From assembly GCA_951406725.2 (NCBI GenBank), contig OX597818.1:16802001-16866000 (forward strand): a DNA stretch of 64,000 nt. The letters run 5' to 3'. The notes under the pieces were generated by a model. That model saw only the letters and a program-made list of their open reading frames with translations, had not been told where the DNA came from and ran no database searches. The stretch's first letter is position 1. The number at the start of each line of letters is the position of its first letter. The position numbers were made by a program, and so were the translations under genes. Shown in pieces: positions 3,914 through 52,344 of the stretch. Source of the stretch: Octopus vulgaris. Its lineage: Eukaryota.

Positions 3914-3963
3914 ATCATATCACTTAGATCATTAGCGCTTTCTCCCATTCTAGTGGGGTTTTC

Positions 3964-3996
<33 letters not shown>

Positions 3997-5188
3997 TGTC
4001 ATAAATAACAGAAATAATTTGATGGAATTTTATTTAACAATAAGAAAATTCTAATATCATGACAAATTGTTTCGTAACTTAAAAACATGTAACTGATTTA
4101 TAGTATTATATTTAATAATAAATAAATTATTTACATGTCTGCATTAATGCAAAATGCAAAAAAATCCTTCATAATAAGCTACATCATTGATACCTATCTT
4201 GGAGTAAATAGGATGAATTTTGTACCACTTCAACTTGTGTTACTTAGGTGATATTCATATTCTCATATTTTACGAGTTGCTAGGCAACTCTTCAGATGTT
4301 GTTACTCAGAAGCAAGGCTTTGAAATTGGTGTCAAGTATTTTTGTCAAAGGATGAACAAACAACTATGTCAAAAGAGTACAACTACAGTACCACACAAGC
4401 AGCCAAAGAATTGCATCCTCTTAATGACTCTGTATCACTGCCCTTGTCTAGTGGTTCTCCAAATGACCAGTACTAGCAACCTGCATGGAGCAGACAGAAT
4501 TCGTTGAGGTAGATGTTCTATGGCTGGATGTCATTCCCATTGCCATCTCTCATCTGTTTCCAAGCAAGATATTTTCCCTTAGCTTGTTTTTCTTAAAAGT
4601 CTGCATACTAACAACCTCACATGTATGACATCATGTAATGTCTAGACAAGAGTACCCACAAGCACATACACATCTTAATTTTATTACATATGGCAATTTG
4701 TCCACTCTCTTTTCAACCTGCATAAGCTCTGCCAATGAGGTCAACCACGACTCCATGAGAAATAGTGGCTTAGTCTACCTAACTTGTAAGTAAATACTGT
4801 AAGGCTGCATGCCATTCACAAATGTTGATATTTTTATCCCAGGTCATCCCTAATTGGTTCAAAGGCAGCCATGATAGACTATTGTTTTGCGCATCATTAT
4901 TCAATGCCTTTTCATTTATTTAAGAGGATAGGTGATTTGAAGCTAATTTGCCTGCTGCTTCTAGCAGGATCAATTGACTGCATAAAGGCTTCCACTTTCG
5001 TAATGGCAGGAAGTTGAAATTGACATGTTATTGGATTGTAATGAGTTGTTATCCATCTGGTAGGGAAAAAAATCTACCTTAAACTACACCAAAGTTCTGT
5101 CCAAAAAAACATTGATCTCATCTTTTTAATAGTGGGGAAAGTGGAGTTCTATGCACAATTCAATCAAATCAGAAAAAGTTATATATAT

Positions 5189-5421
5189 GGCGAGCTGGCA
5201 GAAACGTTAGCACGCCGGGCGAAATACTTAGCGGTATTTCGTCTGCCGCTACGTTCTGAGTTCAAATTCCACCGAGGTCAACTTTGCCTTTTATCCTTTC
5301 AGGGTCGATTAAATAAGTACCAGTTATGCACTGGGATTGATATAATCGACTTAATCTGTTTGTCTGTCCTTGTTTTTCCTCTCTGTGATTAGCCCCTTGT
5401 GGGTAGTAAAGAAATAGGTAT
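5189..5421 (+). mobile_element. SINE family B (ggcgagctggcagaa...gagttcaaattcc...aataagtaccag)
   Basis: Box A/B-like head. Diverged relatives at ~708, 1096, 20914, 23197, 25880, 26031, 33533, 39350, 44495, 48555 (+) and ~45594-46010, 47830 (-). Confidence 0.85.
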
Positions 5422-5930
5422 TCTAGTACTATTTCTACCCCACCTTGTTTCACATTTATGTGCTTACTTTGGTATATATAATATTAAGATTGTCCTACCG
5501 TAACACATCCAAAGAATGCCTCCCAAAAATTCATTTCTCCAATCATACCTTCAAATCATGATATCTAAGTAAGTGAATGGACTGTAGGTATTATTACATA
5601 TTTCCATATATTATGGCATGTATTATACAACACTGACTAAATTGCATAATCTTGAATGAGATATGGAATGGAAATATCATCTGTTTACACAAACAATTGT
5701 CAATTTGACTTCTCCAGGTTTTATTTTAAGCCTACTGGACTTATCTTGGAATTGCGTAGAGCCCCCATGTATACCAGTCAAAGTCTTATGGATCTCCTTT
5801 TGATTTTGGGATACTACTCTGGCGAGGATCCTGTATAACGTGCTGAGGTGACAGCCAGATTTACGCTTATTCCTTCTGTCTGTCTGTCTGTTTATATATT
5901 AATCGAAGTGTACCATATTATATATTCATT

Positions 5931-6026
5931 ATGGTCAATCTTCCCAATCCGTTTTGCACTAGGGGTTCAACAAAGTGTTAGGTAACAATCTGATTATGTA
6001 ACCTTGCGCTCATCAGAGATAACCAT
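5931..6026 (-). ncRNA. Decayed hammerhead motif in a Penelope-like fragment
   Basis: Minus strand reads atggttatct CTGATGA gcgc...gtgc aAAA cgg...agattgaccat. Stems I and II are recognisable. G12 is lost (consistent with CpG decay) and the NUH site is lost. Confidence 0.4.
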
Positions 6027-7901
6027 TATGGAATTTATATGTATATATGAACATTTATATATGGTGCATGTGTGTGTGTGTGTATATATATGATATAGTC
6101 TGACATGGAACAATAAAAAGTGAAATAGACATTCTATGGTAAAAATTGCCTGGGAATGATGGGATAGTGTGTGTGTGTGTGTGTGTGTTTATATCATGGT
6201 ATCAGCCAGACTATCAGACATTGTTAGAAATTATTGATCACAATGTGCTTCACATTATCTTGGCTTTCAGATAATGTTACCCCATTGGCTAGGTGAGGAG
6301 CCCAACATTCCCTCTGATCGGAAGGCTATTCTGTTGCAGGGTTACCCATTTATAGTTGAGTGGACTGGAGTAACGTGAAGTGCAGTGTTTTGCTCAAGAA
6401 CACAACATGTCACCTAGTCCAGGAATCAAACTAACAGTCTAGTGATTGTGAGTGCAACACTCTAAGCACCAGGCTGCATGCCTTCTCACAAGCACACACA
6501 CATACATAGGCAGAAGCACAGCTTTATGGTTAAGAAGTTTGTTTTGTAACCATGTGGTTTTAAGTTTAGCCTCATGGAACAGCACCTTGGACGAGCGTTT
6601 TCTGCTATTCCGTAAGTGAATTTGACAGGTGGAAACTGAAGGTATCTAGTCTTCTCTCTTTTTGTATGTGTGTCTCTTTCTCTCTCTGTGAATGTTAATA
6701 TCCCACAGATTCACTTGAGTGAAATGGTGAATGTTGTTCACACACCTTGTCAAGTATTATTACCTGTTTCTGTGTTTTTGAAGACTTATGAGGGTAAAAA
6801 AGAAAATCTTCACTTGAGAAACAGGTAAGGTTTGGCAACAGGCAAATCATCCTTTTGTAAAATCATATCTCCAATGTCCTTGCCCAAGCCATACAAGTAA
6901 GTGGTATTAGATGAAAGTGAAAAAACGAAAAAACAAAAAAAAAATCAACAAATGCTTAGTTTTCACTCACAATACTAGCATGGAAGATAATCATTCAAAG
7001 TGCCATGGAGTGGGAACAAAACCAGTGTCTCATGACCATGAATCAAACTTAACCATCAAGCCATTCCTGTATATGGAGATATGCACACACATCATCATTA
7101 TTTAACAGCCATGTTCTATACTGGCATGGGTTGGACAGTTTAGCAGGAATTGATGTGTCCAAGGACTGCATCAAGCTTCAATAGCTGTTTTAGCATGGTT
7201 TTTATGGCTGGATGCCCTTCCTAAGGCCAACTAATTTACAGTATGGACTGGGTGCTTTTTTCATGCCATCTGCTGTATTGAGGTTGCCCACTATACAATT
7301 TCTGTTTACAAATTTCACTCACATGACTTGGTCAGCTCCAGATAATTAGTAAATGACATTTACCTAAAGTGTCACACAATGAGTTGGAACTGAAAACCAT
7401 GTAGTTATAGTTTGAACATCATAGCCAGACAGCCATACCTGGATCAGTTTATAACCACTTAGCCATGCCTGCATCTGTTCAAAATCAGTTTTTATAGAAA
7501 TATGAGGAACATTTGAAAAATCATTTCTCTTGGTGTATTGAAGCCATTTTTAGTATTAACAATTTAAAGTATAGAGTATGTGTTGTACACTAGAGGCAAG
7601 ATTTTGTCTTATTGCATGAATGTTTGGACAGAATGAGAATCTATTCAACAAGGGTTGTAAATTGTATTTGATTGCTTTCAGTGTTGTTGTTGCTGCTGTT
7701 TTTCTCCTTTTACTTTTTAAAACTTCCCTATAATTTCCTGCTTTGTTCATTAAGAATTCTTTGAACATTGGTGAGGGTGAGGAAGAATCAAGTCAATTTG
7801 TCTGGGAATCTTTGTAAATTTTCATCTACAACTAAAGCTTTTTGAATTTCTTGGTTGGTTTTATATGTTTTTCTTGTGTGTGTGTTCATTTACTCTTGTA
7901 G

Positions 7902-7998
7902 ATGGATAGTGAAAGCAGAAAAAAGAATTTCAAACTGGAAGCTATTTCATGTATATGCATGTATGTGCCTGTATGTATGTATTATGAGTGTGTACATG
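7902..7998 (+). CDS. Candidate upstream (start/leader) exon MDSESRKKNFKLEAISCICMYVPVCMYYECVH
   Basis: Acceptor tactcttgtAG immediately before ATG and donor G|GTATGT. 97 nt, ending in phase 1, so compatible with the Ig exon. The hydrophobic part overlaps TATG-like low-complexity sequence. Confidence 0.22.
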
Positions 7999-19209: not shown

Positions 19210-19734
19210 GTTACTAAATGATTTGCTTGCTCTGCAGCTTGCTGAATCCATGTTTACTCATTTGTTCTATTGTGTGTGTGTGTGTGATACTTTAACCTCT
19301 CCACACTTGACATAAAGCCATCACCCTCTCGCCCCCCCCCCGTAATGTAGTAGGCTTTTCTTTTTGTTCTTTTTCTTTCTTTTTGTCATGCAAGTTATTC
19401 AGCAACCTCATTTGTGCTAATTGCATAAGAAAAGCATCCAGTACATGATGCAAAGTGGTTGGCTTTAGGAAGAGCATTCAGCTTTAGGAACAATGCCAAA
19501 ACTGACAAGTGAGAGTTAGCAACAAGAAAGGCATCTGGCTGTAGAAAATCCACCTCAAAGAATTCCCATTCAAGTATGGAAAGGTGGGCATTAAATGATG
19601 CTGATGATTTTGTTGTCCAAATAGGAGAAAGAGTATACAGTACATATATGTAGCAGAGTTTATAAGAAATTTTTGTATAATGAGAAAAAAAAAAGCCATG
19701 GCTGTGTAGATATTAGAACATTTATAGATAGAAG

Positions 19735-19786
19735 GTCTTACAGCTGTTTCCAGGATATTTATTAATTATATGCCTTCATCAGAGAC
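19735..19786 (-). ncRNA. Minimal type I hammerhead ribozyme motif (Penelope-like-element type)
   Basis: Minus strand reads gtct CTGATGA aggcatat..atatcctg GAAA cagctg TA agac. Stem I gtct/agac, canonical core, palindromic stem III ACAGCTGT, GUA cleavage triplet. The base of stem II is irregular. Confidence 0.72.
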
Positions 19787-19925
19787 GGTGTGAAAGGATG
19801 GTTAAGTAACAGTTAATTTAGATAGGATACAAAATAGAGAGTGAAGTGGAGGAAAGAAAATAAATGTGAGACATGTAGGGATATTGAAGATGTAGATCCA
19901 TTTTTTAGGCAGAATGGTATATATA

Positions 19926-23464: not shown

Positions 23465-25348
23465 GTATACACTTTTTGGACCTATTTCCCAATATATCCC
23501 TTTTTAAATCTACAGTTGTCTTCCCCACCTCTGATACCCTTTTTATCTCTATCAGTTATGTCACTCACCATCTCTTCTTTTTATTTGCAATGGTGCTTGT
23601 GTAATTAAGGATGGTATTCAACCTGTCTAATCATCTAATCTCATCTCTCATCTAGGCAGTTACCATACCACCTGAGTACCACGGGATAGTATTGTTAAAC
23701 CTGCTCATTTTCAATTTTCCTACCCATCACTCTTCCTACCACTCTTTATATGTATCTGATGCACCCTAGTCATCAGTCTGTCTTCCTTCAGCCACTTGCT
23801 ATTGACAGCCATCACTCACTCTTACTATTGTCCACCTCTATTACTATTTGTCAGTTTTTCTCCCCATTTGCCATTCTTTTACACCAATCATTGTTTCTAC
23901 CAGCATACTCTTAATCCTTCCACCCACCCATTATGGTTCATTAGTCATCACCCTCTTTTCTACTCACCTTCTCAGTCATAGTGTTTTGAGTGAACAAATA
24001 CATCATAGAGTAGTAAGGATATGTTTGTTTTACAAGTTAAGAGATAATCTCTTTAGTGCTGGTGCGAAAATAAAACGAACTCGGTACACTCTGTGAAGTA
24101 ATTGCTGAATGAATGAGACTTGCCAAAGGTATGACAACCTTTCTTGCAGTAGTGATAGGAAGAGCATCCAACTTTAAAATCCAAACCAAAAATGAAATGG
24201 AGGAGTAACTTCAAATAAGAACTGATTCAAATCTGAACACCCATCCTACTCATCCCAGCATGGAAAGCTGACATAAAATGATGATGATGTTGATAGTTGA
24301 CATCTGTAACCCTTTAGTATTTAAAACAGCCATATCCATTCAAAATATTCCACCTGTTTTATGTTCTCTGGCATCTTACACCTAGCTTACTATGCCATTC
24401 TAAAAAATTAATAATCACATCATCAATATCTCAAATATGTGAGGTAATGCAGGATTAATTCAAAACAATGTGAATAAATAAGCATTATATTTGACAGAGT
24501 AATTTGAATGCTAAAGAGTTAAAGTTGCTCAAGACAGATTGTTATTCTTATATTTGTGAAATGAACTTCCATAGATCTTCTTCCTTGTTTGTAGATTTCA
24601 GATGGAGTAGAACCAGCAAACCAGCCCAAGTGCTTTGTTGTCAGCTGGCAGAATGCAATCTCCAGTTCTTTGAGAGTCAGAGATGCTGACAGCCTCTGTT
24701 GTGTGGGGAACATGGGAAGATCATAGCAGTCATCATAGGTAGTTAGTGGTCTGTGCAAAAGAGAATAGAATGCTAGCCTATTGGTTAGGATGTTGGATGC
24801 ATGGTCTTGTGGTTGTGGGGTTGACTCCTGAACTGGGCAAAGTACTTCATTTTATACTGGTTCAGTCAACTCAGCCGAAAATGAAAACCATCCACCTCTT
24901 CCTTTATACCAGATGTTTCAATGAGTCAAAGGTTGAAGGGCTGAGAGGATATTTTTATCTGCTTGCAACTACATAGGCATCTAAAACAATTGGTGAAAAC
25001 ATAGCACCTGCTACTAAGTCATACTTACAAGTGACAGGTTTTCTTTACATTCACGCATGCACACATGTACACACAAACACACTTATATTAGCACAAACAA
25101 AAAATAATTATTATTTTCTTTTTTTGGTGAAGAACTGAGCTCATACAACTTTATACTTCCCATTAACATCTACTTACTTTATATAATCAGTTATAACCCC
25201 AATATTATTTTGCTGCGAGACTAAATATGATTAATGCATAATTAGCATTTAAACCTTTTATATACTAAATAGTAATCAAAATGTACAGTGTTATATTCAG
25301 TTTTAATCCTGTTAACTTATACATTACTATTTCCATTTACTTTTCCAG

Positions 25349-25651
25349 ATTCTACAGACAGCAATACATTGTTTGCGGAAGCAAATGGTATGATTATGAT
25401 ACCATGCAGTGAAACGTCTGAAAAGGTTGCAGCGGTCAAGTGGTACATAAATGACCAGCTCCTCATCGGCCATGACCTCAGTCCAAAACCCAGTGCAGTG
25501 AATGGCGATAAAGCGGGAGTGTCAGTGGGTGAAGACTATAGTCTTACACTGACGGACCTTAGTTTGAATGACACTGGAAATTACACTTGTAGGCTTGTCA
25601 GTACCAATGGGGATTCCATCAGCAATGTAACCCGTGAAGTCGTCATTCAAG
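25349..25651 (+). CDS. Internal exon encoding one immunoglobulin (V-set-like) domain of an IgSF protein
   Basis: Pyrimidine tract and acceptor ttttccAG (25347-48), donor GTGAGT (25652), 303 nt, phase 1-1 as is typical for Ig exons. Translation DSTDSNTLFAEANGMIMIPC...VKWY...YSLTLTDLSLNDTGNYTCRLV...EVVIQG has the B-strand Cys, C-strand Trp and DxGxYxC motif, plus N-glycosylation sequons NDT, NYT, NVT. Confidence 0.92.
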
Positions 25652-28600
25652 GTGAGTCTGTATTTCTTTTGGTCTTTCTCACCATCTGTCATTGTCATCA
25701 AAGAGAAGACAGAAGACAGCAGTGTCATCATTTTGTTGTCATCATCTTTTGTGGGCTTTGTCTTTCATCTATCTCTCTGGGGGTCAGTAAAATAAGTACC
25801 AGTCAAATACAAGGATCAATGTAATCAACTACCTCCTCCCCTCAAAATAGCTATCCTTGGTTGAGGTGGCTTGGGATTGCTTTGCAGAATTCCGCCAAGG
25901 TTGACTTTGCCTAGCATCCTTTCAGGGTTGATAAAATAAGTACCACTTGAGTACTGGGGTTGATGTAGTCAATTAGCCCTTTCCTCAAAAGTTTAAGGCT
26001 TGTACCTATAGCAGAATGGATTATTATTAAGGTGACAAGCTAGCTGAAGCGCTTGGGCACCAAACAAAATGCTTAGCGGCATTTTGTCTGTCATTACATT
26101 CTGAGTTCAAATTACACTGTGGTCAACTTTTTCACTATCAGATCTAATACATTGATTTTATTGCAGTACTAGATTATTCAGTGAAATAACACCTACTTCA
26201 TTTTATTCAAGATGGATTTTATAACAATATTTACCTTACCTGTTATTCTAACATTTTGTCTTGAGTTGGGAGATCATTGCGATCAGTTCTATGTGTTTGG
26301 CCTTCGATCCATTCTGATAGAATTATTGTCTTCAGATTGTCAAGTAAAGCTGACTGTGTATCCACCTGCACTATAATCAAGCTGATTTACAATAATATCA
26401 GTGGCTATTTCCTTGACTACCTCAGTTTCAGTATTTCTTGTACTAGGTTTCACTTCTGCAGTGGAGGGATGTTTTGCATCATCTGAACATGACCATTGGC
26501 CTGAACATATACTTGAATCTGTTGGATATCCATGTCAGTTAACAGCTTATTTTTCATTATGATGTTCCTGTGAACATTAGCTAACATATTGCTATTTATG
26601 TTTGATCTATTGGTAAGGTTTTTTTTCTTCTGCCAGGTTAAGTATGTTCGCTCTGTATTAGATCTACCCAATAGAAAGTACATTGCAGTGTAATAGGTCT
26701 TTAGAATGACCTTGTATTCTTTGTCTTTTGTCTTTTCAGGGTTCATAAATTGAGTACCAGTGAAGCACTGGGTTCAATTGAATAAACTTTGCTCTCCACT
26801 CAAAATTACTGGTCTTGTGCCAAAATTAGGAAAGAATATTATTAGACAAATAAAACCAGGACTGAATACATTTCTCCGCTTTTAAGCAAAGTGCAGATAT
26901 AAATAACAAGCATTTTGAATGGCATTCTTTCTTTCAGTATTCTCTTACTATGGAGATTTAAAACACTGTTGTGTGCCATTTCCACCACTGCCACCATCAC
27001 CATGAAAGTAGAAGTGCCACATTTTAATCAACTAATATATTTTCCCTAAAATATTTATCCAGTGTATTAATCTGATCAACCATTATTACCTAGTATCAAA
27101 TAATCTTCTCTATGTGAGCTCCTGATGTAGCACTCTGCCCTTTTATTTAAAATTGTAATTTTAGTAGTTAATTTTTCCCATTCAGTATGTTCTCACTGCT
27201 GTTTCATTATTTCCCAGCAGACTGCTGAAACATGTTTATTGATTTATTTTACAATCTATAAATTAATTAGTTAATTAATTGATGATTAAACAATGATTGA
27301 TCAAAGCTTGTATTTGGCCAGTAGAGCTATGTTTGATGTACACTTCCTTTCCTCATTCTGTTCACTTAACAGGATGACATGTCTGACCCAATATTAAAGA
27401 AAAGGTCAGAAAATGAAAACAAAAGTATTTTTTTCTCAACTCAGCCATGTGGTTAAGAAGTTCAATTCACAACCATCTGGTTCCAGTTCAATACCACTGC
27501 ACCGTACAGTGGTCAAGTGTCTTCTACTATAGCCTTAGAGCACAAAATATCTTCTGGGTGAAACCATATGGAAGCACAAACATACACATGCATGTGTGTG
27601 TACGTCTGCATATGTGTATATACATACATGTTTCTTTGTCTTGAAGGTCATTATCAGAGATGTTAAATAATGGCCAAGATACACACTATAATTTTGCTGG
27701 TTGAACCAAATCTTGCTAACTACTATGAGCACGAGTGGTCATTATCCAATATAGGTGCTTTCACTCCATTCAGCTTTGTACCTTTTGCATCAACAGTAGC
27801 TTAGCTCTCACTCTCTAATATTCTTTAAATATGTGAGCTGTTCCAGACAAATTAGTTTTTTGAGATATTCTGTTCTATTGTATTTAATTATTTATCCAAC
27901 TTATTTGATACCATTCCTAGAAACTTTATTACTATTGGTATTGCCAAGAACAGAATTACAGTAGCACACTAGACCATGATTTTGATATTTCTCAACTGTT
28001 TCTTTGTTCTATTCTACCAAGTTGATTATATCCAGACATTGCCATGCCAGTGGCTTTTACACACCCATGCCCCTTCACTACTGCCTGAATATATGGGCTC
28101 TCTCTCTCAGGAAATCACAGAATATTTAGTAGTTCTTGAACTCAAACTAGAGGGCCAGTATTCATTACCCATTGCTTCAACAGTCTGTTCTTTCTAGTTA
28201 ACAATTCCCAGTATGCATCATCGGTCTTCCTTTGTATTTCTTTTTAACTACATTAATGTTTTCTCTCATCAAACGTGCTACCCTATGACCCTTACTGCCA
28301 CACATGCTACTTAATGTATGGGATCTGATCTAGTTTGATACATTATAATGACAACAATAGTAAAAATAATGATGATAATAAATGAACAAAAAAGAATCAT
28401 ATTAAAAGAATTATTATTATTATTAATAATAATATTATTAATATTGTATTTGTGTGTTCTATTATATTTCAATTATCTTTGCATCCTGCCAAAGAGATTC
28501 CCAAACCACAACAATAAATTCTATAACACGAATTAGATTAGCAATACTCAATGTTTAACAGACATCAGTTAGAAAAGACATTTCAATATTGTTTTTGCAC

Positions 28601-30434: not shown

Positions 30435-32856
30435 CAGCACTGCTTAAACTATGAGATACGACACCATTTGGGGTTGTGAAGTGAAATACTGAGGTCACAA
30501 AAATTAAATTCAAACTTCAGTTTGTTATTTCACAAATGCACAATATTTAATGTGATGTGCCATGCAAGCGCTGCAGTAATAAAATGCAAATGCAGTGCTG
30601 TTGCAACTAGTGCAGTGACAACGTGTGTATTTTCAGTGTAGTTGGTTGATTGTGTTCATCTTAATAAGTAGATAAATAACAATACATTTTACTGTTTTAT
30701 TCAATTGAGGTTGATATTTATTTAAAGAATTTCGTAGTTATTTTATGAAATGTTATTTTATTTATATTTCAAAATAAAAATATTTTACTCATGGATAAAT
30801 GGTTGAACTTGAGTAACAAAAGTAATGATGCAGATGGCAATGCTACAAAGTCTGTTCAAGCAGAACCTAGTAATCAGAGAGAGGCATCTGAGATGTGGAA
30901 AAAGAAAATATGATGAGTCAGTTCTCCAATTTGGCTTCACTTTTAATAATAGCAATGGTATGGAACAACCTCCTTGTTTAATTTGCAATAACGTTTTGGC
31001 TGTGGGGAGTATGAAACCCTCAAAATTAAAAAGGCATCTTGAATTCAAACATCAATAAAGCAAAGATATATTTTGAAAGACTGTTTATATCTTCAAATAT
31101 AGAAAAGCAAAATTTTGAGAAATTTTTGGCTATAAATGAAAAATATTCATTAGTATCATACGAAGTTTCATATCCAATTGCAAAAAATAAAAAGCCATAC
31201 ACCATTGGGAAAGAACTTTTATTACCTGCTACTATGAAGATGGTAGAAATATTTCACGGAAGTAAATATGGTGATGAAATTCGGAAAATTCCTTTGTTGA
31301 ACAACATTGTTGCCAATAGAATTACTGAAATTAGCAACAACCATCTATTTCTATGCTTAAAGAAACACAAAATTTGCTATTCAGTTGGACAAAACAACTG
31401 ATATTTTAAAAATGGCACAATTGTTAGTACACATCAGATACATTTATAAAGAAAATGCCAATGAAGAATAGTTATTTTGACATCATTTGGAAGAACATAC
31501 ATGAGGGAAAGACATATATAGTAAAGTTGATGGATTTTTTAAAACTGTAGGTTTGGAATGGAAAAATTGTATTGGAGTATGCACAGATGGTGCAAAAGCG
31601 ATGATGAGTAAAAATATTGGTTTTAAATTCTTTAAGGCTGCTGGTAGTAATCATGTAACTTTTATACATTGCATGAGCCATTGAGAGGCTCTTGAAGCAA
31701 AAAAATTAACACTGGAATTAAACGATATGCTTCAGGATGTTATCAAAATTATAAACTTTATTCAAAGCCGTATCCTTAACAGCCATTTATTTTTAAATCT
31801 CTGTATAGACATGAACTCAGAATACAAAAACTTATTATTACACTCAGAAGTAAAGTGGTTGTCAAGAGGGTGAAGTTTATACAGATTATTGCTGTTAAAA
31901 GACGAAATTATTATATTTTTAACTGAACAAAAATCTGGTCTTGCTGCTCTTTTTCAAAATGACTTATGACTTTCAAATTTATGCCATTTGTCAGATATTT
32001 TTGAGAAACTAAGCGATCTCAACTTTTCTCTTCAAAAATAGAAAAACAATGTATTTACTTCGAATGATAAAACATTTGGAATAATAGGGTGAAAAGTGAT
32101 TCATTCGAAATGTTTCTGGTTATTGAAGATTTTATCATTGAAAAAAATAATTGCAAAAATTAAATACCACTTAAATACCCTAGAAACACAGTTTTGCAAA
32201 TACTTCATATCGAATTTTAATTTCAAAAAGTTATCTTGGATTCAGAAACCATTTTCAATTGACATTGATGATATTAATGATCTGCTGTATAAAGCCCAAG
32301 AGGAGTTCATTGAGCTATCAAGTGATTCAAACTTGAAACTTGATTTTACAAACAAGTCTTTGACTGAATTCTGGATTGGAGCTAAAGGTGAATTTCCCAC
32401 TATTTCTGAAATGGCATTACATGTTCTTTTGTCATTTAGCACCACATACCTATGTGAAACGACATTTTCAGCTTTAACCCTTATTAGAACCAAATATCAT
32501 TCAATAATGAAAAATGTAGATGTAACGTCCGCTTTCCATGCTAGCATGGGTTGGACGATTTGACTGAGGACTGGAGGAACAGATGGCTGCACCAGGCTCC
32601 AATCTTAACTCTGTCAGATCAAGATTGGAGCCTGGTGCAGCCATCTGGTTCGCCAGGTCCTCAGTCAAATCATCCAACCCATGCTAGCATGGAAAGTGGA
32701 CGTTAAATGATAATGATGTATGTATATTGTTCAGCAAAAAAATAAATGATTTATGTATATATTTGTATACTTTATTTCTTATTTAATACCTGGGGTCACA
32801 AAAAAATCTCATGATGAAAAATGGGGTTATGAATGAAAAAAGTTTAAGAAGCACTG
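30435..32856 (+). mobile_element. hAT transposon of the Buster/Charlie group (ZBED8/SCAND3-like transposase), decayed
   Basis: 8-bp TSD ATGTAGAG on both sides with central TA. TIRs cagcactgcttaaact / agtttaagaagcactg. Fragments: BED finger (PPCLICNNVLA...MKPSKLKRHLEFKH), KKPYTIGKELLLPA, CTDGA, HSEVKWLSRG, and the dimerisation motif FSTTYLCETTFSAL. Confidence 0.95.
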
Positions 32857-34938: not shown

Positions 34939-36300
34939 TGTTGTTATTGTTATTAAGTCAAGGTAGCCGAATCACTAACACACCAGATAAAATTCTTAGC
35001 AACATTTCTTCCAGCTTCATGCTTTGAATTCAAAGTGTGATTCATTTCCATTATTGTGATCATGAAAAAAATTTAACCCTCTTCGAAACAAGTGAGGTCT
35101 GGCAACAAGAAGTGCATCCAACCATAGAAAATCTGCCCTCAGTAAATTCACTCCAACCCTTGCAAGCTTGGAAAAGTGGATCTTAAATGATGATGGTATG
35201 TATACATACATACATACGTATGTGTGTAATTTGTTTCCATCATGTATTTTGAAAATAATGGCATATTGATAATGAGGTGCTAATGGGCCAATCACTTACT
35301 GCATTGCCAAAGCTAAAGGACTGGGTAGCATCTCTGCACAAATTGTGTGGGATAAAAATACTACAAAGCATTTTTGTTTGGCAAACCAATTTATTGGCAA
35401 ATTTCTATCTATTATATATGAAGATATACAGACTGTTATGTATTTGTGTGTTTCTATGTATAAATATGTATGAGTATGTATATACATATGCACACACACA
35501 AACACACACACCTGTGTGTGTGTGTGATGTAATACTCCTGTGTTAAGTTCATTTATCCGTTTGATAAGGTTCTGGCAACCCTCCACATCAGGCTAGTCTA
35601 GTGAGGCAGCCATTTTAGTTGTTGATGACCCAGTCATGTCTACTACACATCATCAGTAGCACCCATGCATGACCTGACAGAAATATGTTACAAATAAATA
35701 CTATCAATGTTGCTGTGATCATCAACCTTGCTCAGATGTTTGTAGCATATGTTGTTGTTTAGCCACAGGTTTAACTTGGAGCAAGTAGACTCGTGTTTGA
35801 TGGCAATACAGCTGTTACTATTCTGTTGTTTGTTTTTGGGCTATCCAAGACTACATTAATGAATATGTCATTTCCCCACCACCACCGTTTTTTATAGATG
35901 ATTTGGTGTGGTAGGAGAGGTTTTGCTGTTAATTTTTGCAGGTCATAGAGATCTTCCCCATTACTTTATCCACAACACCCATTCACTTTTTCTCTCACAT
36001 TCATGTTTGTGTGAGTTTACACATGCTCATAATATACTTACATATTGATGCAACCTAGCAGACTGGTTAAGAAGTTTGTTTTGTAATCACAAGGACATTG
36101 GCTCAATCTCAATATGTGGCAGCCCATGAATTGTGAGTGAATTCTGGTAGACAAAAGCAGTTTGAGAGCCCATTGAATGGACTGCACTTGTGGTTAAGAT
36201 ATTCAGCTCCTGAATCTTAGCAATTTCGGCTGTTTAATCTCGATATCACTCCAAACCGGCCAGCCCCAATGAAAAACTAAATATATATATATATATATAT

Positions 36301-36637
36301 AACAATTGCAGCGTGGAAGGTGTTTGTAAGCCATTTAAGAAACACACAAAAGCCGTTCGATTCATTTCAACATTTAAGTTTAATTTGTCAAAATATTTTC
36401 GTCACTAAAATCCGCGACCTGTTCACTGACAAAAATCCGTGCTGCACCTCAGATTTTTGTCAGTGAACAGGTCGCGGATTTTAGCGACGAAAATATTTTG
36501 ACAAATTAAACTTAAATGTTGAAGTGAATCGAACGGCTTTTGTGTGTTTCTTAAATGGCTTACAAACACCTTCCACACTGCAATTGTTTTCGTTTCAGCA
36601 CACGATCTCAGATCAAATCACTTGCTACGCGAGTACA

Positions 36638-36638
<1 letters not shown>
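36301..36638. mobile_element. Penelope-like inverted pseudo-LTR fragment (137-bp-arm hairpin plus tail) in a (TA)n/(CT)n tract
   Basis: Arms 36301-36437 and 36452-36588 with 3 mismatches and a 14-nt loop. One-sided ~50-nt tail, hammerhead motif inside, microsatellite flanks. Confidence 0.7.
36456..36505 (+). ncRNA. Minimal type I hammerhead ribozyme motif with G3-C8 covariant core (mirror copy on the minus strand in the left arm)
   Basis: tttgtca GTGAACA g gtcgc-ggatttta-gcgac GAA AATATT T tgacaaa. 7-bp stem I, 5-bp stem II, palindromic stem III AATATT, UUU triplet. Confidence 0.6.
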
Positions 36639-36682
<44 letters not shown>

Positions 36683-38250
36683 GCGTTTGTGTTTGTCCCC
36701 CTAGCATTGCTTGACAGCCGATGCTGGTGTGTTTATGTCCCCGTTACTTAGCGGTTCGGCAAAAGAGACCGATAAAATAAGTACTGGGCTTACAAAAGAA
36801 TAAGTTCCGGGATCGAGTTGCTCGATTAAAGGCGGTGCTCCAGCATGGCCAAAGTCAAATGACTGAAACAAGTAAATAAAAAGCGTATATGAATATTCAT
36901 ACCCCAAATCATTAATCCATTTACTTTTAGTTACTTTACATATATCTTTACACACACAGTAACACATGTCTATATGCTTCATTTTGTAAGTGTGTGTGTG
37001 TGAAGTACTTTGCCATAACCCCACCTTATTGCTGACGCCTTCCATTTAAATAGGAATCACCCTCTTAAGTCAGAGGCAATATCAGTATCACAAGGAAGCA
37101 GGATGATCCAACTGCAAGAGGGGGTCTAAGGAAAAAGAGGAAGTGTGATATCCAGTTACTGTGACACCTATAGCAGTTCCTTTAGACTTGAGAGGAAGTG
37201 CCAGTGCCCTGTACCCTAATTAACAGGATAAATGTCAATGAATGAATGAAGTTGGGGTTGTTTAGCCCCAGGTCAAACGTGATTGAATAAGACCTATGTT
37301 AAGACATGTTCTAGTCACGATCACTTTGTCTTCTTAAGGATACCGAAGACGACATTATGCAGCGTGTCTTTTCCTTTTTAAGACTAGAATGTGATTTGAA
37401 CAAGATTTGGGTGCTATTTTTAGCAGGTTTGGTGACCTCATATAAAAACTACCTCGTTGGTTCATCTATAACGCGTTTCTCTTACATTGGTGAGTATGTG
37501 TATTCACACACACTTGTACAAACCCACACATGTATCTGCTATATTCCTCCACCACTATCCTCCTCCCACAGCCGGATTATGCTGGCTCCCTGTGATGCTG
37601 ATGTCACATCTTAGACAAACAATGAAGTAATGGTAGGAAGAGTCTGTGGTGGAGGCGTGAGACCAGATAAGGAATCTTCTAGATACCACTGGATAGTTTC
37701 TATCTTGCAGATTAACATATTTCCTCTGAGAAATATATATATATATATATCTGTTATTTATTTTTTCTTTCTAAAATGTTTATTTCGAAAATATTCCATT
37801 CAAGCTTTTACATGCACGTGCAAGAACACACACACACACACACACACAAACACACATATACACACACATTACATTACATTATGAAACTAGTTGTTATTGT
37901 TGCTAATCGTCAGGTGAACCTTGATCTGTTGATCCTTATGATAAAAGGCATCCTGCCAGTGACCAAGTGCATTAAATGTGTCCTTCCATTTTTGGGATAA
38001 AGAAGTATTAGTTGATGGAGGTTTGGCTGGTATTTCTAGCAGGTTGGGTGATCACATAGTCCTTCCCACCCTCTCATTGACTCATTGTATATGTAGTTGA
38101 ATTATTAGGTACACACACAGTCATCATCACCAGTTTGTCTGTCATGTGGTAATGGCATTGGTTGGGCAGGTCTGCACCAGCTCAGTATTTTGCAGCATTT
38201 CACCACATGGTGTTGTCATTCATCGTCTTCTTTAGGAGGTATGGCATCTT

Positions 38251-38500
38251 GATTACATCGACCCCAGTGCGTAACTGGTACTTAATTTATCGACCCTGAA
38301 AGGATGAAAGGCAAAGTCGACCTCGGTGGAATTTGTGAGTTCAAATTCCGCCAAGGTCGACCTTGCCTTTCATCCTTTCAGGGTCGATGAATTAAGTACC
38401 AGTTACGCACTGGGGTCGATGTAATCGACTTAATACCTATGTCTGTCCTTGTTTGTCCCCTCTGTGTTTAGCCCCTTGTGGGTAGTAAAGAAATAGGTAT
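38251..38500 (+). mobile_element. SINE family B insertion with an inverted duplication replacing its 5' end
   Basis: TSD aggtatggcatctt(ga) at 38237 and 38495. 85-bp arms at 38251-38335 and 38342-38426. Confidence 0.85.
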
Positions 38501-45043: not shown

Positions 45044-45076
<33 letters not shown>

Positions 45077-45341
45077 CCGGAGTAAACACATAAATGTGAA
45101 ACAAGGTGGAAAAAAGAGTACTCAAATACCAGTGGTAGAGTAATATGCTTTATTTAAAGCAGCAGAAAATTCAACAAAACCTGTTACTCTGAGTTTCCCG
45201 TTGCCGTTCATCGGACAGTTTTTGCTAGAATGGAACTGATATGTCCATATCGGTTCCATTCTAGCAAAAACTGTCCGATGAACGGCAACGGGAATCTCAG
45301 AGTAACAGGTTTTGTTGAATTTTCTGCTGCTTTAAATAAAG
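45077..45341. mobile_element. Penelope-like inverted pseudo-LTR fragment (96-bp-arm hairpin plus tail) inside the (TA)n tract of a SINE
   Basis: Arms 45148-45243 and 45246-45341. One-sided ~70-nt tail, hammerhead-like motif followed by AATAAA. The host SINE halves continue on both sides. Confidence 0.7.
45181..45218 (-). ncRNA. Minimal hammerhead-like motif (U4C core, 2-bp stem II with GCAA loop)
   Basis: Minus strand reads ctgt CCGATGA a-cg-gcaa-cg-g GAAA ctcagag TA acag. Quasi-palindromic stem III ACTCAGAGT and GUA site. The mirror copy on + has GAAA mutated to GAAT. Confidence 0.5.
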
Positions 45342-47380
45342 AATATATATATATGTTTGTGTGTCCATGTTTGTCCCACCACCATTGCTTGACAACTGAT
45401 GCTGGTGTGTTTACATTCTCGTAACTTAGTAGTTCAGCAAATGAAGCTGATAGAATAAGTATTAGGCTCACAAAGAATGTCCTGGGGTTGATTTATTCGA
45501 CTAAAGGTGATGCTCCAGCATGGCTACAGTCAAATGACTGAAACAAATAAAAATAAATTAATGAATAAGGTTAATATATATATATATAATGAATTTGCCA
45601 TTTTCTGTGGGTGTGCCATAGTCAATTGCATGAACTCCAGTGCTCAACTGGTTCTTTATCAACCTCAGAAAGATGAAACTCCTAGTGGAGTTTGAACACT
45701 GAACATAAAAATGGACAAAATGCCACTTTGGATTTTGCTCGGCATGCTAACAATTTTGCCAGCTTGTTCCTTAAATAATAACAACGACAATAATGATGAT
45801 GGTGATTTCTTACATGCGAACAGATTCTCTAATTTGGGGAAAGGAATAGTTGAATGTATCGACCCTTGTACTTAACTAGTAAGTACTTTATTTGATCGAC
45901 CTTGGAAGAATGAAAGGTAAAGTCAGTTTCAGTTGGATTTAAATTCAGAAGTTAAAGGACCATAACTTAGATATCTCAAGGCATTTTGTCTGATGCACTC
46001 CACTGCCTTAATAATAATAAAAGGCTATTGTAACTGAGTATTTCTATGCCAGTAAACGATCTAAGCATATAAGGAAAAAAAAAACCTCAGTAGTAGTGTC
46101 TAATGAGAGGTCTGTAAAATCCATCATTAGTTAAGAAGGCTGTAGTTCTCTAATGGCCTTTGTAGTTAATGGAGGGAATCTGTTAGGAACGTCAAAACAG
46201 GAACAGATCAAAGATAAGGCACAGTGTGTACTCCTCATCTTTGGCCTGTGGAATCTTAACATCTTAACCAAATACCATTCTAATCAAACATCATATCTGG
46301 TGTATCCTGGCCTACATTATCTAATATTTCTTTTTATTACTTTCTTTCTTTTGTAAGATGATAGGGTGTGACTTGAGGTTTATTAGCCTACTGTTTCTAG
46401 TAATTCATGTGATCAATGTACAGGCCCCTTCATTGGCTTGCAGGACGGCCTTGACTTGAATGCTTTTAAGGCGAGGTGTGCTTGACTAGTGTTAAGTCAA
46501 GTGTAAATAACAATCAGAGCAAAATTATTTCTGAAACATCCTAACTAATTTTACATAGGTGTGTGTGTGTGTGTGTGTGTGTGGCTCGTCCAACCCCTCC
46601 TCTCAGCATGTTGTTAAACTCTTTTGCTACCGACCCATTGTAGACCACCCCTAGTTTGGTGATTGATAAATCCAAATTTGAATGATGTTAGTGTTCAAAC
46701 TAAAATCTCCCATCAAAAAATTCATATGAGAATCTTTTGTTCTTATCTAACTTGAACACCAAACGCCATCTTAATAACTGTTTCTAATATAGGCACAAGG
46801 CTAGAAATTTCTGAGTGCAGACTAATCAATGAAATTTTCCCCAGTATTTGACTGATACTTTGTCATCAAATCCTAGAAGGATGAAAGGTAAAGTTCTCAG
46901 CAGGATTTGAACTCAAGAATGGGAAGAGCCAAAACAAATGCTGCTGCAAAGCATTTCTTCAATGCTCTCATGATTCTGCCACTCCACACTCCCCTATCCG
47001 TCACTAACAATTGAGTATGCTTTGGTGACATTTATCCTTTCAATACTAATTGTTGTTGGTGACTTTTAGTTATGAACAGGCATAAACTCCTACTCAGCTT
47101 TCCTGCTCAATATTCCAGTAGAATATCAAAGATGTCACTGTAGGAAGTTAGGAGGCTTCACACCAGCGTTCAGCTAATACTAATTCTGAGCTGATTAGAT
47201 TGGTTCTATGTGAATTAGAGCACCTTGCTTAAAGGCACAATGTATTGCCAAGTCAAGGAATTGTACCTACAGACTTATGATTGTAAATCCAATAACTTTA
47301 CCACTAGGTCCCTGCCCCATAGCACCATCTTAATAATGAAGAAATCATTTCTACCAGATTCACACATTTTTCTTTTATTA

Positions 47381-47758: not shown

Positions 47759-48159
47759 ATTTGTTAATATTTTTGATATCAATTAAACTGCATCAGCTAG
47801 TATCTCATTAGGAAATAATAATCCTTATTTTGCCACAAGGCCAGCAGTTTTGAGGGACGGGGAAGCCAAATGCCCCAGTGTTCCAATGGTACTTTATCAA
47901 CCCTGAAAGAATGAAAAGCAAATTTAACCTCAGTGGAATTTGAACTTGGAACATAAAGACAGATAAAATGCCCCTGAGAACTTTTTTTTAAAAGTCAATA
48001 CTGTGTACTACTGTGTTAGCAGTGCACTTAAATCACTTGTTAAGGTCATCTTTAAGTATTGTCTTCTAAAAATGTTTAATACACTTTGTAGCATATTATG
48101 GTTGCATAACAAAATACCGTGTGCCTACAAGTCATTACTGAGAACTTTATCCTGTGTTT

Positions 48160-48538
48160 TTTTTACTTGTTTGTCATTTGACTGCAGCCATGCTGGAGCA
48201 CCACCTTCAAGGGTTTTAGCCAGTGCTTATTCTATCAGTCTCTTTTGTTGAATTGCTAAGTTATGGAGATGTAAACACATCAACACTGGTTGTCAAGCAG
48301 TAATGGGGTGACAAACACAGACACACATACATAGCTATGCATAAACTCACACACACATGAACACACACACACACACACACACATATGATGGGCTTCTTTG
48401 AGTTTCCATTTACCAAATACACTCACAAGGCTTTGGTTGGCCTGAGGCTGTAGTAGAATACACTTGCCAAAGGTGCCATACAGTAGGACTGAACTTGGAA
48501 CCATGTGGCTGAGAAGCAAGCTTCTTAGCACACAGCCA
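48160..48538 (-). mobile_element. SINE family A copy
   Basis: Reverse complement of family A. Confidence 0.85.
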
Positions 48539-49428
48539 GTGCTAACATTTCTGCCAGCTCACAGAATTGTTTGCATACCTGGCAAAATGCCTTGGAGCAT
48601 TTTGTCCATCTGTTCTGAGTTCAAATTCCACTGAGGCCAACTTCACTTTTCATCCTTTTGGAGTCAGTAAAATGAGTACTTTTGAGCACAAGAGTCATTG
48701 TAATCAACTCAACCCCTCCCCCGAAATTGCTGTTGTTGTGCCAAAATTTGAAATCAATAATAAATGGTTTACACATTTGTGGAAGTTATTTTCTTTCTTT
48801 TGTTCTTTTTATCTTTTACTTTACTTGCAATGCTTTGTGGTTTCTTCAGGTGTCTGACTAAATGGTAAAACCAACCAGACTCATTTGTCTGTCTTTCTGT
48901 CTGCCAAGCTATCACACTGTCTGTCTGTCACTCTTTACTGCTTATCATTCATTCATTCTATATGACTGTCATTCACGTAGTGCTGCCTGTCAATCAGTCG
49001 TTCTGTATGTCTGTGAGATTAGTAAAGAGACCAGCAAGAGATAAACTCTAAATATCTTCACAGATGCTATGAGAAATATCAATTTAGAGGAGAAGCAGTT
49101 TCATATTTACTTTTAAAGTATTGTTTACCTCTGTCTCACATTTTAACCATGACTGTTTTTTTTTTCTTTTCGGTTTTAACATTTTGTAATAGTTTTACTT
49201 TTGTGTGTGTGCATGTAATAATACATGCAATCAGTAGACACACACGGTGGTGGAGGGGAGTACTCAGTATATGTAGGAGAGTTTGTTTGAAGTGTTGAGT
49301 GACTCATTAGCACTGAAGCTATACATTTCGTATAGCTTTTGCAAGCAAATACTCAGACATGCACACTTGCATGCATACATATATACATGTACATAAACAC
49401 GTACACACATATATACACACACACATGC

Positions 49429-49474
<46 letters not shown>

Positions 49475-50124
49475 GCACACACACTTATACATACCCAAAC
49501 ACACATGCGTACATGCACACTTACAAGTACACATATAGATACACCTTCACGCACACACACACACATCCCTACTTGCTCACACATTATATGAATGCAGGCA
49601 TGCCAGGAGAGTTAAGAAGTTAACTTTTAACTCATTAGAGATCCTGCTGAAAGCCCATTACCTGGTACCTGAATGAAAGTGGATTGGTGGAAAGTGTACG
49701 GAAGCATATCAAATGGACTGTACATGTAATTCGATGAGCCTACCTTGTTACACACTCTCACTGAGTCATGTTGAACCTGCCTATTAAAAGTGCAAATATC
49801 TGTATGATACTCAACCACTTACATTATAAATACAATATGTAGGTTCTTCCATTCAACAAATAACTGCAACATTTACTTTATTTATGTTCATTTTACTTCC
49901 ATGCAAACTTGGTTTAGACTTTCGACAATGTTATTAAGGTATTCTTTTCACAGCTGGATGACCTTGCTGTCACTAACCCTTACCTATTTAAAAAAAAAAA
50001 AACGCACAAACACATACACACATGTCTGTGTGTTTGTGGTGAGGGATAGAGTGATGAATGACATGATAAAAAAATATATGCAGTTAGTGCTGAAGTTGAA
50101 TTTGTACCTAATCCCCAGCTTTAA

Positions 50125-51202
50125 CCCTTTCGTTACCAAACCGCCCGAAAAAAATTTTGGTTAATGTAACCAAACCGCCCAAAGCCGCCCGAATTTACCT
50201 ATTCATATTTAAATGAGAATATCAGAGCAAATCTCTTTAATACATTCGTGAAAATACGTATTATACTTCGTAAAGAGTTCAACTACAGTTTTGTACAAAA
50301 ATCGAAGTGTAATTTTAATTCCATGAATTTTGGGAGATTTTTTTCCGAAATTTGTTCCTATTGTGTTTTCAAAATTTGTAATTCTGACAAAAAATGGATA
50401 CGAATTTCATTATATCAAGCAGCGAGTCAGAATTCGAAGGATTTTCTACTGAAGACCTTCATAAATCTAACTATATGACTGAAAAAAAAAAAAGCATGTG
50501 GTATTTGATAATGAATCTGATGTTTCATTTTCCGAAAGTGAAAACGGTGAATCCGAGAGCTCTGACAGCGATAAAGAAAATGAATTGGCACCTGAATGGA
50601 GTGAAAATTTAAAAACTGATTCTTTCGATCATTTTTCTGAAGAAACTGGACCAAGCCACAGACTTTCCCAGAAGAGTAAAGCCTTAGACTATTTCTTTTT
50701 ACTTTTTCGAATGAGCCTATTTGAAATCATTACGGCAGAAACGAACCATTACGCTAAATGTAAACAAAACGAAAGAAAGGATACTTTGTGGTTTCCCATA
50801 ACCTTAAATGAAATTAAGACTATTTTGCCATAAATATTATTATGGGTATCAGAAAGTTACCCAGAATAACAAATTCTATTGTAAAATTTTGTTGTATACC
50901 CAATTGAATATTAGCTAATAACCCATTTTCTATAGCGATGTTTGAACAAAATTTTAATAATTTTATATTTTGTTGAATTTACCTGTATCTACCTGCAATT
51001 AGAGTCACTTTGTGACAAAAATTATAGTATAGAATTGGTTGAGAACATTTCATTAAATTATCTTCCAAAATTCACGTTAATATATTGATAAATAAAAAAG
51101 TTATAGTTGTTTAATGAAACTAGACTAAATTTATGATTATGTTAGAAATTAATTGAAACACATAAGGGGTGTATTTTGGTCAGAAATATAGTAACGAAAG
51201 GG
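50125..51202 (+). mobile_element. piggyBac non-autonomous deletion derivative with N-terminal transposase remnant (PGBD4-like)
   Basis: TTAA TSDs and TIRs CCCTTTCGTTAC / GTAACGAAAGGG. Acidic N-terminus SSSESEFEGFS, then ALDYFFLLF..LFEIITAETNHYA..W..ITLNEIK..IIMGIRKLP, frameshifted and truncated. Confidence 0.9.
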
Positions 51203-51391
51203 TTAAATGTACCACTCAAACTGAAGTCCACCATTGCAAGTATTAAGAACTTTCTACAGTCAGGACTTTTCCTGACTTCCTGTTCTAGAGAGAGAGAGAG
51301 AGAGTGTGTGTGTGTGTTTGAAGTGGTGTACAGATATTGTATATTGAGAAAAAGGAGGCAGAATTTTGGATAATTTTTTATTAGTGCTTTC

Positions 51392-51712
51392 TTCCAGGTC
51401 AGTCCTACTGTGTGGCACCTAGGGGAAGTGTCTTCTACTATAGCCTTAGGCCTACCAAAGCCTTGTGAGTGGATTTGGTAGATGGAAAACTGAAAGAAGC
51501 CTGTTGTATGTGTGTGTGTGTGTTTCCCCCAACATCGCTTGACAACTGATGCTGGTGTGTTTACATCCCTGTAACTTAGCGGTTTAGCAAAAGCGATGGA
51601 TAGAATAAGTACTAGGCTTACAAAGAATAAATCCTGGGGTTGATTTGCTCGACTAAAGGTGGTGCTCCTGTATGACCGCAGTCAAAAATTACTGAAACGA
51701 AAGAATAAAAGA
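51392..51712 (+). mobile_element. SINE family A copy (5'-truncated) splitting an older hairpin
   Basis: Family A body and tail. The flanks form the arms of an inverted repeat. Confidence 0.87.
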
Positions 51713-52344
51713 ATTCCTTTATCAAACTCATGAAGACAAAATCGAAACAATTTTGATTTTGTCTTGAGTTTGATAAACGAATGAAAATGCTAATAAAGAA
51801 TTATTCAAAATTCTGACTGCCTCCTTTTTCTCAATATATGTGAATACACACACACACGCTGATAAGCATCACTTTTTTCCTGTATGTGCACATAAGCATG
51901 TATATATTTGTGTGCAGTGCATGTTTCCAAGTGTTTTAGTAGATAGTATTAAACTAGCATTTACTTTAGTTTTACTTTACTTCTAAATTACAGGACATGT
52001 TGAGACACACATAAAGACAGGTACACTTACATGCACACACACACACACACACCCAAACACACAATGCTTGTGTGTGTGGTGATGGGAGGGGGTACTTATA
52101 TGTATAGCTGTTATGGTTCAAAGAATTGTATTGATATAAATGTATTCATGTGAATAATGGAAAGAATGCAGAAACAGAAGGACACAACCATAGACACAAA
52201 GCTAAAAATGGAAAATATGCAAATGATGTCGATGATGATGGGTTGGTGGTAGTGATTGACAATGATCACCACCACCACATATTTGAAAATTAAAAGTGCC
52301 TCACAGCCACCCACGTGGGATCATGAAATATTATTCAGTCTTAA

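Follow-up and report, generated by a model that had tools for sequence, protein, structure and literature searches.

Hammerhead repeats in the window

Hammerhead-type sequences lie at all six places in the window (the whole stretch of 64,000 nucleotides analyzed) where a sequence-only reading had seen hammerhead topology. As that reading held, they belong to different families: each comes from its own high-copy repeat family (F1 to F6), membership being directly observed, and each forms the 3' end of that family. Clades of Penelope-like elements (PLEs) in the list below are assigned by motif, motifs having been compared by eye with the supplement of PMC8557442.

3462..3550, minus strand: 3' half of F1, ending at (TA)n
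3551..3911, plus strand: SINE of ~360 bp ending in (GAT)n, inserted in the internal (AT)n of the F1 copy
3912..3963, minus strand: F1 (Neptune-like PLE) pLTR fragment, 5' half; hammerhead 3927-3965 ends inside the core
5417..5476, plus strand: short 3'-terminal F5 fragment without hammerhead
5906..6034, minus strand: pLTR fragment of F2 (Hydra-clade PLE); hammerhead 5931-6026, canonical core and long stem II
19661..19925, minus strand: short element of F3, in which no ORF was found; hammerhead 19735-19786 intact
36301..36453, minus strand: F4 inverted 5' arm; second G3-C8 hammerhead 36384-36433; ends at (AT)n
36443..36641, plus strand: F4 (Nematis/Neptune-like PLE) 3' end; hammerhead 36455-36505, G3-C8 core
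45073..45248, minus strand: F5 (Hydra-clade PLE) pLTR; hammerhead 45181-45218, stem III ACUCAGAGU
45247..45346, plus strand: inverted 5' arm of F5; 45271-45308 is a hammerhead copy, GAAA changed to GAAU
51308..51394, minus strand: second F6 fragment with a ~30-nt tail, ending at (CA)n
51715..51839, plus strand: foldback of F6 (older sister of F1); decayed hammerhead 51757-51798(+), truncated inverted arm 51720-51757

Intact cores are found at 19735, 36456 and 45181 only, the other three loci being mutated or truncated. The SINE splits the F1 copy, with F1 model positions 1-52 to one side of it and 49-126 to the other; the F2 hammerhead features G12 changed to A (AAAA instead of GAAA), and the main F6 copy lacks three core bases. 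The F3 hammerhead (minus strand) reads CUGAUGA...GAAACAGCUGUA, with an A10.1-G11.1 mismatch and stem III ACAGCUGU. The F4 hammerhead 36455-36505(+) and its mirror 36384-36433(-) read GUGAACA...GAAAAUAUUU, with the G3-C8 pair; the former has an additional G after A9, stem III AAUAUU and a UUU site. The F5 hammerhead (minus strand) reads CCGAUGA...GAAACUCAGAGUA and its stem II is just 2 bp long. All four stem III palindromes quoted in the sequence-only reading are present at the window motifs, and none of the further hammerhead families catalogued in this analysis matched the window.

A strict descriptor matched the window three times, against a mean of 0.1 (maximum 1) in 20 block shuffles. In 1,109,800 bases of arbitrary genome sequence it matched 44 times (2.5 per 64 kb), against 1-4 in shuffled and 3 in reversed sequence. 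Density is therefore not that of shuffled controls, the comparison on which the initial proposal had been staked. The motifs are beyond chance, but their density is ordinary for this genome, the three window matches being average (P(>=3)=0.47). An origin as chance look-alikes in AT-rich palindromic DNA would agree with the Rfam scan of the window, in which none of 48 matches at E<=1 was to a hammerhead family, and with the failure of three window copies to fit the consensus; yet the motifs are fixed across the copies of their families. Chance is already refuted at the family level, and has practically no probability left as an account of the motifs. By extrapolation from the sample, ~110,000 intact-looking hammerheads would reside in the genome.

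Core variation among families

Type I cores with a 3-8 pair, GAAA, a NUH site and stems I-III are found at the family level in F2, F3, F4, F5 and F1, the last with U3-A8 (core UUGAAAA, stem III AGCGCU). F6 is ambiguous (core CUUGACGA, stem III AGCGCU, and either an additional U or a U3-G8 wobble), and the window copies of F1, F2 and F6 fail to form such a core. The swapped G3-C8 core of F4 is represented by 5,534 exact 22-mers. The G10.1-C11.1 pair is not general: it occurs in F2, F4 and F6, its place being taken by A-G in F3, A-A/G in F5 and C-A in F1. These non-pairing residues (A-G, A-A or C-A) and the UUU site of F4 are departures from the consensus.

Folded as monomers, the six sequences assume a clear hammerhead shape in F4 only (z=-3.2). 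Mismatches are rarer in core than in flank in F3 (0.007 vs 0.050) and F4 (0.012 vs 0.030), and do not differ in F2 and F5, in a comparison biased by best-hit sampling. On these sequences F4 might be a naturally fixed, active G3-C8 hammerhead residing in thousands of young copies, which together with the U3-A8 and C3-G8 families would make up a natural core-pair swap series in one genome, stems I and III making each family a dimer ribozyme orthogonal to the others, with selection acting against cross-cleavage; we consider this unlikely. The swapped core is the single unusual detail, the rest being known PLE biology at ordinary density, mostly confirmed here in a cephalopod-type genome. What may be of use is the set of naturally occurring core variants (G3-C8, U3-A8, non-pairing 10.1/11.1) carried by young families, one with intact ORFs. 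Such a set could probe whether PLE hammerheads must cut, a question raised by PMC11167929 and PMC8557442.

Upstream genes and insertion targets

RT/GIY-YIG genes of PLEs are directly observed upstream of five of the six families, two assigned by motif to the Hydra clade, two Neptune-like, one Nematis/Neptune-like. A single ORF joining RT and C-terminal GIY-YIG is found in F4 and, intact, in F5, is partial or decayed in F1, F6 and F2, and was not found in F3. In F5, a Hydra-type endonuclease lies upstream in sense orientation at 6/30 loci; intact frames of 727 codons (L171, L173) feature RWK, DKT, YRDD, CxCX5C, CxxC and CxH, and copies are ~97% alike. RWK, DKT, CxCX5C, CxxC and CxH are among the Hydra-clade diagnostics (PMC8557442, section 11), and the L171 ORF, shorter than 3 kb, has RWK and DKT, the CxCX5C linker and CxxC/CxH and lacks CCHH. 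An earlier assignment of F5 to Neptune was dropped for Hydra on these motifs. The F5 protein matched no Pfam entry at E<=0.01. In L083 and L088 the F5 3' end runs directly into the ORF start, a partial tandem pLTR arrangement.

A C-terminal GIY-YIG domain with a CX3CxxC linker lies upstream of F4, in sense, at 17/30 loci (some being one insertion seen twice), and an RT with YVDD in L282-L284. F2 has a decayed Hydra RT/EN upstream in 4/10 loci and in L022; F1 a Neptune-like EN in L330, L326 and L137, and an RT in L323. A related EN is found in L338 for F6, whose 3' end is homologous to that of F1; a single locus holds both parts of the F6-PLE link. Nesting also places unrelated PLE ORFs upstream of certain copies (L331, L025). 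The stop-to-stop ORF listing over the first 170 loci was dominated by microsatellite frames. The pLTR and ORF of F5 are covered by contigs of four sets presumed to be RNA, contigs that show neither ends nor expression, with no back-joint among the joints listed. For the F4 insertion (35950-36760, four runs) no contig joining across and no empty site was seen among the joints listed.

Inverted, 5'-truncated copies form foldbacks in F4, F5, F6 and some F1 and F3 copies. Inverted 5' arms, fixed 3' ends at (TA)n and longer alternative 3' ends are direct observations; 5' ends are ragged. The tails so defined measure ~30 nt in F1 and F6 and exceed this in F2 and F3; those of F1 and F6 match the PLE tail. 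The six motifs are thus very probably hammerheads of type I, each at the 3' end of one of six high-copy families, five traced to PLE genes; 5'-truncated insertions targeting (TA)n and AT-rich DNA probably left them here. The link of F3 to PLEs is drawn from its anatomy, as no ORF was found in 42 F3 loci.

It has little probability that the motifs are instead non-coding retrozyme-like elements amplifying via circular RNA. Copies are mostly short in all six families, F3 has tandem subrepeats upstream and no ORF, and a 2026 preprint, in the parts considered, ties animal retrozymes to PLE pLTRs (bioRxiv 10.64898/2026.07.22.740005); but five families connect to ORFs, 5' ends are ragged, and window copies are solo or inverted, with no head-to-tail hammerhead arrays, instead of non-coding units in tandem that each carry a hammerhead. 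Of the two origins initially offered, PLE pseudo-LTRs are therefore retained for the five families with PLE genes and retrozyme-like units are not. The description of the elements as short and non-coding fits F3 alone, since the other five consist of truncated PLE ends, from elements that encode protein.

The preferred reading, truncated PLE insertion, agrees with the targets. (TA)>=4 adjoins 92/150 3' ends over the six families (F5 28/30, F4 18/30, F1 17/23, F2 12/23, F3 11/22, F6 6/22), against 5.2% at random and 0.5-8.3% after 6-mer matching, so that dinucleotide tracts are targets as first supposed. Against it, the other 58 ends have no adjoining (TA)4 (tails, tandem read-through, AT-rich sites). 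In the arbitrary sample, (TA)4 lies within 150 nt downstream of 22/40 strict matches, against 16%. In the window the association proposed with (TA)n/(TG)n holds in part, (TA)n tracts flanking the motifs at 3927, 36456 and 45181, and few TA units those at 5931, 19735 and 51720. The median TA run at F5 3' ends is 34 nt long, compared with 12 across the genome, and part of the tract may therefore grow upon insertion. A (TA)n bias of these PLE clades, octopus Hydra-1_Obim included, is already published (PMC8557442 supplement).

The elements had also been thought to prefer the tracts spread by SINE A. The 3' end of the window F5 pLTR, at 45073, falls in a (TA)n tract internal to a SINE A, that of F4 is followed by (TC)n(TA)n and the right half of a SINE A, and the F3 5' end adjoins a SINE A start at TATATA. 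Among 175 SINE A left halves, 92 hold (TA)4 and 157 some purine-pyrimidine tract, so the target pre-exists in SINE A. But SINE A borders ~11% of (TA)n tracts, 17 of its left halves reside in the window, and at 3551 another SINE inserted into the PLE instead. SINE A lies beyond the tract at 6/92 tract-adjoining ends, against 113/1,488 tract sides (7.6%; Fisher p=1.0). Preference for SINE A tracts above others is accordingly highly improbable, and the enrichment foreseen did not appear.

Stem III, dimers and known systems

Family-specific stem III palindromes had been supposed to restrict dimeric cleavage to self partners. Matches in the 1.11-Mb sample form at least 19 sequence clusters, with a wide variety of palindromes, and self-duplexes are predicted, from plain duplex energies, to be more stable than cross-duplexes, or about equal (ACGT, AATATT). 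Yet palindromes recur across families: ACGT is common to the two largest clusters (10 and 5 matches), ACGCGT to two clusters and AGCGCT to F1 and F6, while ACTCAGAGT is identical to the palindrome of cnidarian Penelope-3_HM (PMC8557442 supplement). Elements of coral, sea cucumber and Hydra share ACTC-N-GAGT in the sources compared, so the palindrome follows lineage. AAUAUU would add hardly any stability (predicted -0.2 kcal/mol), and families would already be separated by stem I. That the palindromes diverged as a self-recognition code blocking cross-family cleavage is thus improbable.

From published PLE work, the GIY-YIG domain would nick TA-rich DNA, and reverse transcription would begin internally, a short distance downstream of the hammerhead, and often halt early, leaving many more hammerhead stubs than full elements. 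Two hammerheads of a tandem parent transcript would pair via palindromic stem III; the topology of such a dimer would place each cut site, with the 3' strand of stem I, inside the partner's core, and stem I would therefore also set partner choice. The window copies are likely inert, since mutation or truncation affects three of them and two others, with intact cores, lie in foldbacks where the ribozyme would pair with its own antisense.

The hammerheads that metazoan PLE pLTRs carry (Cervera and de la Pena 2014, PMC4209133) are likewise structured by family, mostly single truncated copies, with opposite-strand pairs, a palindromic helix III, an additional base after A9, a U3-A8 variant and proposed dimer cleavage; in the parts compared, G3-C8 and non-pairing 10.1/11.1 are absent, and stem III is longer in this genome (6-10 nt). 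Metazoan non-LTR retrozymes (PMC7229834; the preprint above) also carry type I hammerheads in short repeats, but are described there as tandem non-coding units with circular RNA, whereas the window has solo or inverted ends, most of them from coding elements. Neptune and Nematis PLEs (PMC8557442) share the C-terminal GIY-YIG, CX2-5CxxC linker, CCHH and microsatellite bias; F1 differs by U3-A8, F6 by the additional U or wobble and F4 by G3-C8, all three being assigned by motif. With Hydra-clade PLEs, F5 and F2 share RWK, DKT, CxCX5C, a short ORF and (TA)n targets, and F5 the lack of CCHH. The F5 hammerhead has the same stem I as Hydra-2_Amil and a near-identical stem III. Octopus Hydra-1_Obim (Craig et al. 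2021, PMC8557442 supplement), which carries a hammerhead and prefers (TA)n, is a family distinct from F5 and F2, F5 standing out by its intact ORFs and closely similar copies. Poseidon PAc of Anolis (Frangieh et al. 2024, PMC11167929) similarly has two 3' ends defining the tail and AT-rich targets; as reported in the parts considered, its cleavage depends on the PLE protein, insertion in vitro can do without that cleavage, and engineered C3G/G8C in part restores cleavage. The swap is a laboratory mutant there and natural in F4, a family known from sequence alone.

Hammerhead families and their density

The six motif stretches were extracted on both strands, and each was searched against the 2.8-Gb genome of the same octopus. 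All six belong to dispersed repeat families (F1 to F6, each with its motif at the 3' end), 40 candidates being scored in each. Family alignments identify type I hammerheads throughout.

Hammerhead families (window position of the query; first-look candidates; features in the family alignment; 3-8 pairs in brackets)
F1, 3927; 783; core UUGAAAA (U3-A8), stem III AGCGCU
F2, 5931; 1,321; canonical core, long stem II, stem III ACC(A/G)AUUGGU
F3, 19735; 1,990; core C(C/U)GAUGA, ACAGCUGU
F4, 36456; 250; core GUGAACA (G3-C8) plus an extra G, stem III AAUAUU, UUU site
F5, 45181; 521; core CUGAUGA, 2-bp stem II, ACUCAGAGU
F6, 51720; 918; CUUGACGA, stem III AGCGCU

The six hammerheads of the sequence-only reading hold as type I hammerheads at the family level, F6 ambiguously so, but within the window an intact core remains only in F3, in the two arms of F4 and in one arm of F5. 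The F1 copy is truncated inside the core and interrupted by a SINE, the F2 copy has lost G12, and the F6 copy is decayed, the coordinates first given falling on its inverted arm. No hammerhead match occurs among the 48 Rfam hits in the window. The 10.1/11.1 pair is normally a conserved G-C in hammerheads; its bases are fixed and non-pairing in F1 (C-A), F3 (A-G) and F5 (A-A).

A strict descriptor (any Watson-Crick 3-8 pair, palindromic stem III), which missed F5 because its stem II is only 2 bp long, gave 3 hits in the window versus a mean of 0.1 across 20 block shuffles. In 111 arbitrarily placed 10-kb genomic regions (1,109,800 bases), 44 hits, some of them non-independent, being paired arms, compare with 1-4 per shuffle over ten shuffles and with 3 once the sequence was reversed, so the motifs are not chance look-alikes. 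These hits fall into 19 sequence clusters and carry C3-G8 (34), U3-A8 (8) or G3-C8 (2) pairs. The sample density extrapolates to about 110,000 hits per genome and equals 2.5 per 64 kb, and the window is therefore average (P=0.47). At least two further U3-A8 families (cores UUGACAA and UUGAAAA) were seen in the arbitrary sample, at loci L192, L198, L216 and L310.

The G3-C8 core is found in 72 of 77 distinct F4 copies, and a 22-mer across it has 5,534 exact matches, versus 0 for the reversed control. F4 is predicted to fold as a hammerhead (z=-3.2); the UUU site and the all-AU stem III (-0.2 kcal/mol) suggest that its activity would be weak at best. A large catalogue of PLE (Penelope-like retrotransposon) hammerhead variants has reportedly been compiled by Lunse et al. 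2017. No naturally occurring G3-C8 family came up in the literature searched, which included passages of PMC4209133 and PMC3088659. Natural U3-A8 hammerheads are described in PMC3088659 (section 8) and in passages of PMC4209133. According to passages of PMC11167929, the C3G/G8C swap restores part of the activity of an engineered PLE hammerhead; cleavage there depends on protein, and insertion in vitro does not require it.

Insertion targets and neighboring repeats

Both anchors of the 3' end were found in 150 of the first 170 loci, and 20 were dropped. In these best hits, skewed to young copies and with F2 and F6 queries ending in a few TA bases, (TA)≥4 lies within 16 nt of the 3' end in 92 of 150, versus 5.2% of random positions and 0.5-8.3% of positions following the same terminal 6-mers. 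The association with dinucleotide tracts is thus borne out for (TA)n ends. The bias is supported by arbitrary-sample hits, 22 of 40 having (TA)4 within 150 nt downstream, versus 16%. It is already published, nearly all Hydra families, octopus Hydra-1_Obim included, being listed with (TA)n preference in supplement S1 of PMC8557442. TA runs are longer at F5 (median 34 nt vs. 12 genome-wide), which may reflect a preference for long tracts or tract growth during insertion; no empty site for the F4 insertion was found among the listed contig joints at 35950-36760. The F4 3' UTR (L251-L280) bears internal CATA/CA microsatellites; the F4 element would itself spread dinucleotide-type tracts.

SINE A, taken here to mean the SINE whose interior contains a TA/TG tract, had been proposed as a source of landing pads. 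Scored on the far side alone, it lies beyond the tract at 6 of 92 ends, against 113 of 1,488 tract sides (p=1.0), the latter counted over 76 regions. The F5 copy at 45073 lies inside a SINE A tract, a target which pre-existed the insertion, since 157 of 175 SINE A left halves have the tract. SINE A is a bystander.

Other features of the window
25276-25824 (+): open frame that looks, by eye, like an exon for an immunoglobulin domain (W and YTC motifs)
32093-32563 (+): frame like the hAT transposase C-terminal dimerisation region
32566-32662 and 38302-38375: nearly perfect hairpins from oppositely oriented SINE sequence
36301-36641 and 45073-45346: PLE foldbacks, near-perfect arms of about 100-150 bp
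58125-58426: 158-bp two-copy tandem repeat
59580-59717: 46-copy (ACT)n tract

The window probably consists of intron sequence from a gene on the + strand. The frame at 32093-32563, which resembles hAT by its motif, is likely a remnant. Rfam miRNA hits at the two hairpins are spurious. Read-through transcripts of the foldbacks would form long double-stranded RNA and, speculatively, substrates for A-to-I editing.

Stem III palindromes

That helix III can be palindromic and that hammerheads can cleave as dimers has been described before (parts of PMC4209133 and of the review PMC6765202; PMC3088659, Fig. S8 legend). A literature search on self-recognition by palindrome yielded no title on that subject. 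Predicted duplex energies favour self-duplexes over cross-duplexes in most cases, as follows for palindromic sequences. Stem III palindromes, earlier supposed to be family-specific, are not: ACGT is common to the two commonest clusters, ACGCGT to two, AGCGCT to F1 and F6, and F5 ACTCAGAGT is identical to the palindrome of Penelope-3_HM and one base off that of coral Hydra-2_Amil (PMC8557442, supplement S2). Palindromes thus go with lineage. If two units paired as a double hammerhead, the core of each would enclose the cleavage site and the 3' strand of stem I of the other, so that stem I, which is unlike between these families, would already restrict partners. In the tests run, the palindrome code fails, as does the SINE A idea.

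Penelope-like genes and anatomy

Of 30 F5 loci, 6 have an endonuclease (EN) frame 1.1 kb upstream. Intact frames of 727 codons occur in two extended loci:
L171:1068-3251, intact Hydra-clade ORF
L173:4821-7004, intact Hydra-clade ORF
They have RWK, DKT, YRDD, CxCX5C, CxxC and CxH and lack CCHH. The F5 protein is not recognised in a Pfam search. F5 copies are about 97% alike; by sequence, the family appears recently active. Upstream of F4, 17 of 30 loci carry a C-terminal GIY-YIG domain with a CX3CxxC linker in the sense orientation, and a reverse transcriptase (RT) was also found; a 48%-identical relative matches Pfam GIY-YIG slightly below the cut-off. Decayed Hydra RT/EN precedes F2 in 4 of 10 loci. 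F1 has Neptune-like EN in three loci and RT in one; F6, its 3' end homologous to that of F1, has a related EN in one. No ORF was found in 42 F3 loci, and F3 is the sole plausible non-autonomous element among the six. Four F3 copies on three chromosomes (L344-L347) have the same upstream sequence over several hundred bases, which may point to either a composite repeat or a segmental duplication.

The motifs form a real set, one that known PLE biology accounts for, and their density is average for the genome. The F5 motifs agree with the Hydra-clade diagnostics of PMC8557442, section 11 (RWK, DKT, CxCX5C, CxxC and CxH, without CCHH). The copies resemble published PLE anatomy in their inverted 5' arms, in having ragged 5' and fixed 3' ends, and in alternative ends that reach further, by about 30 nt in F1 and F6.
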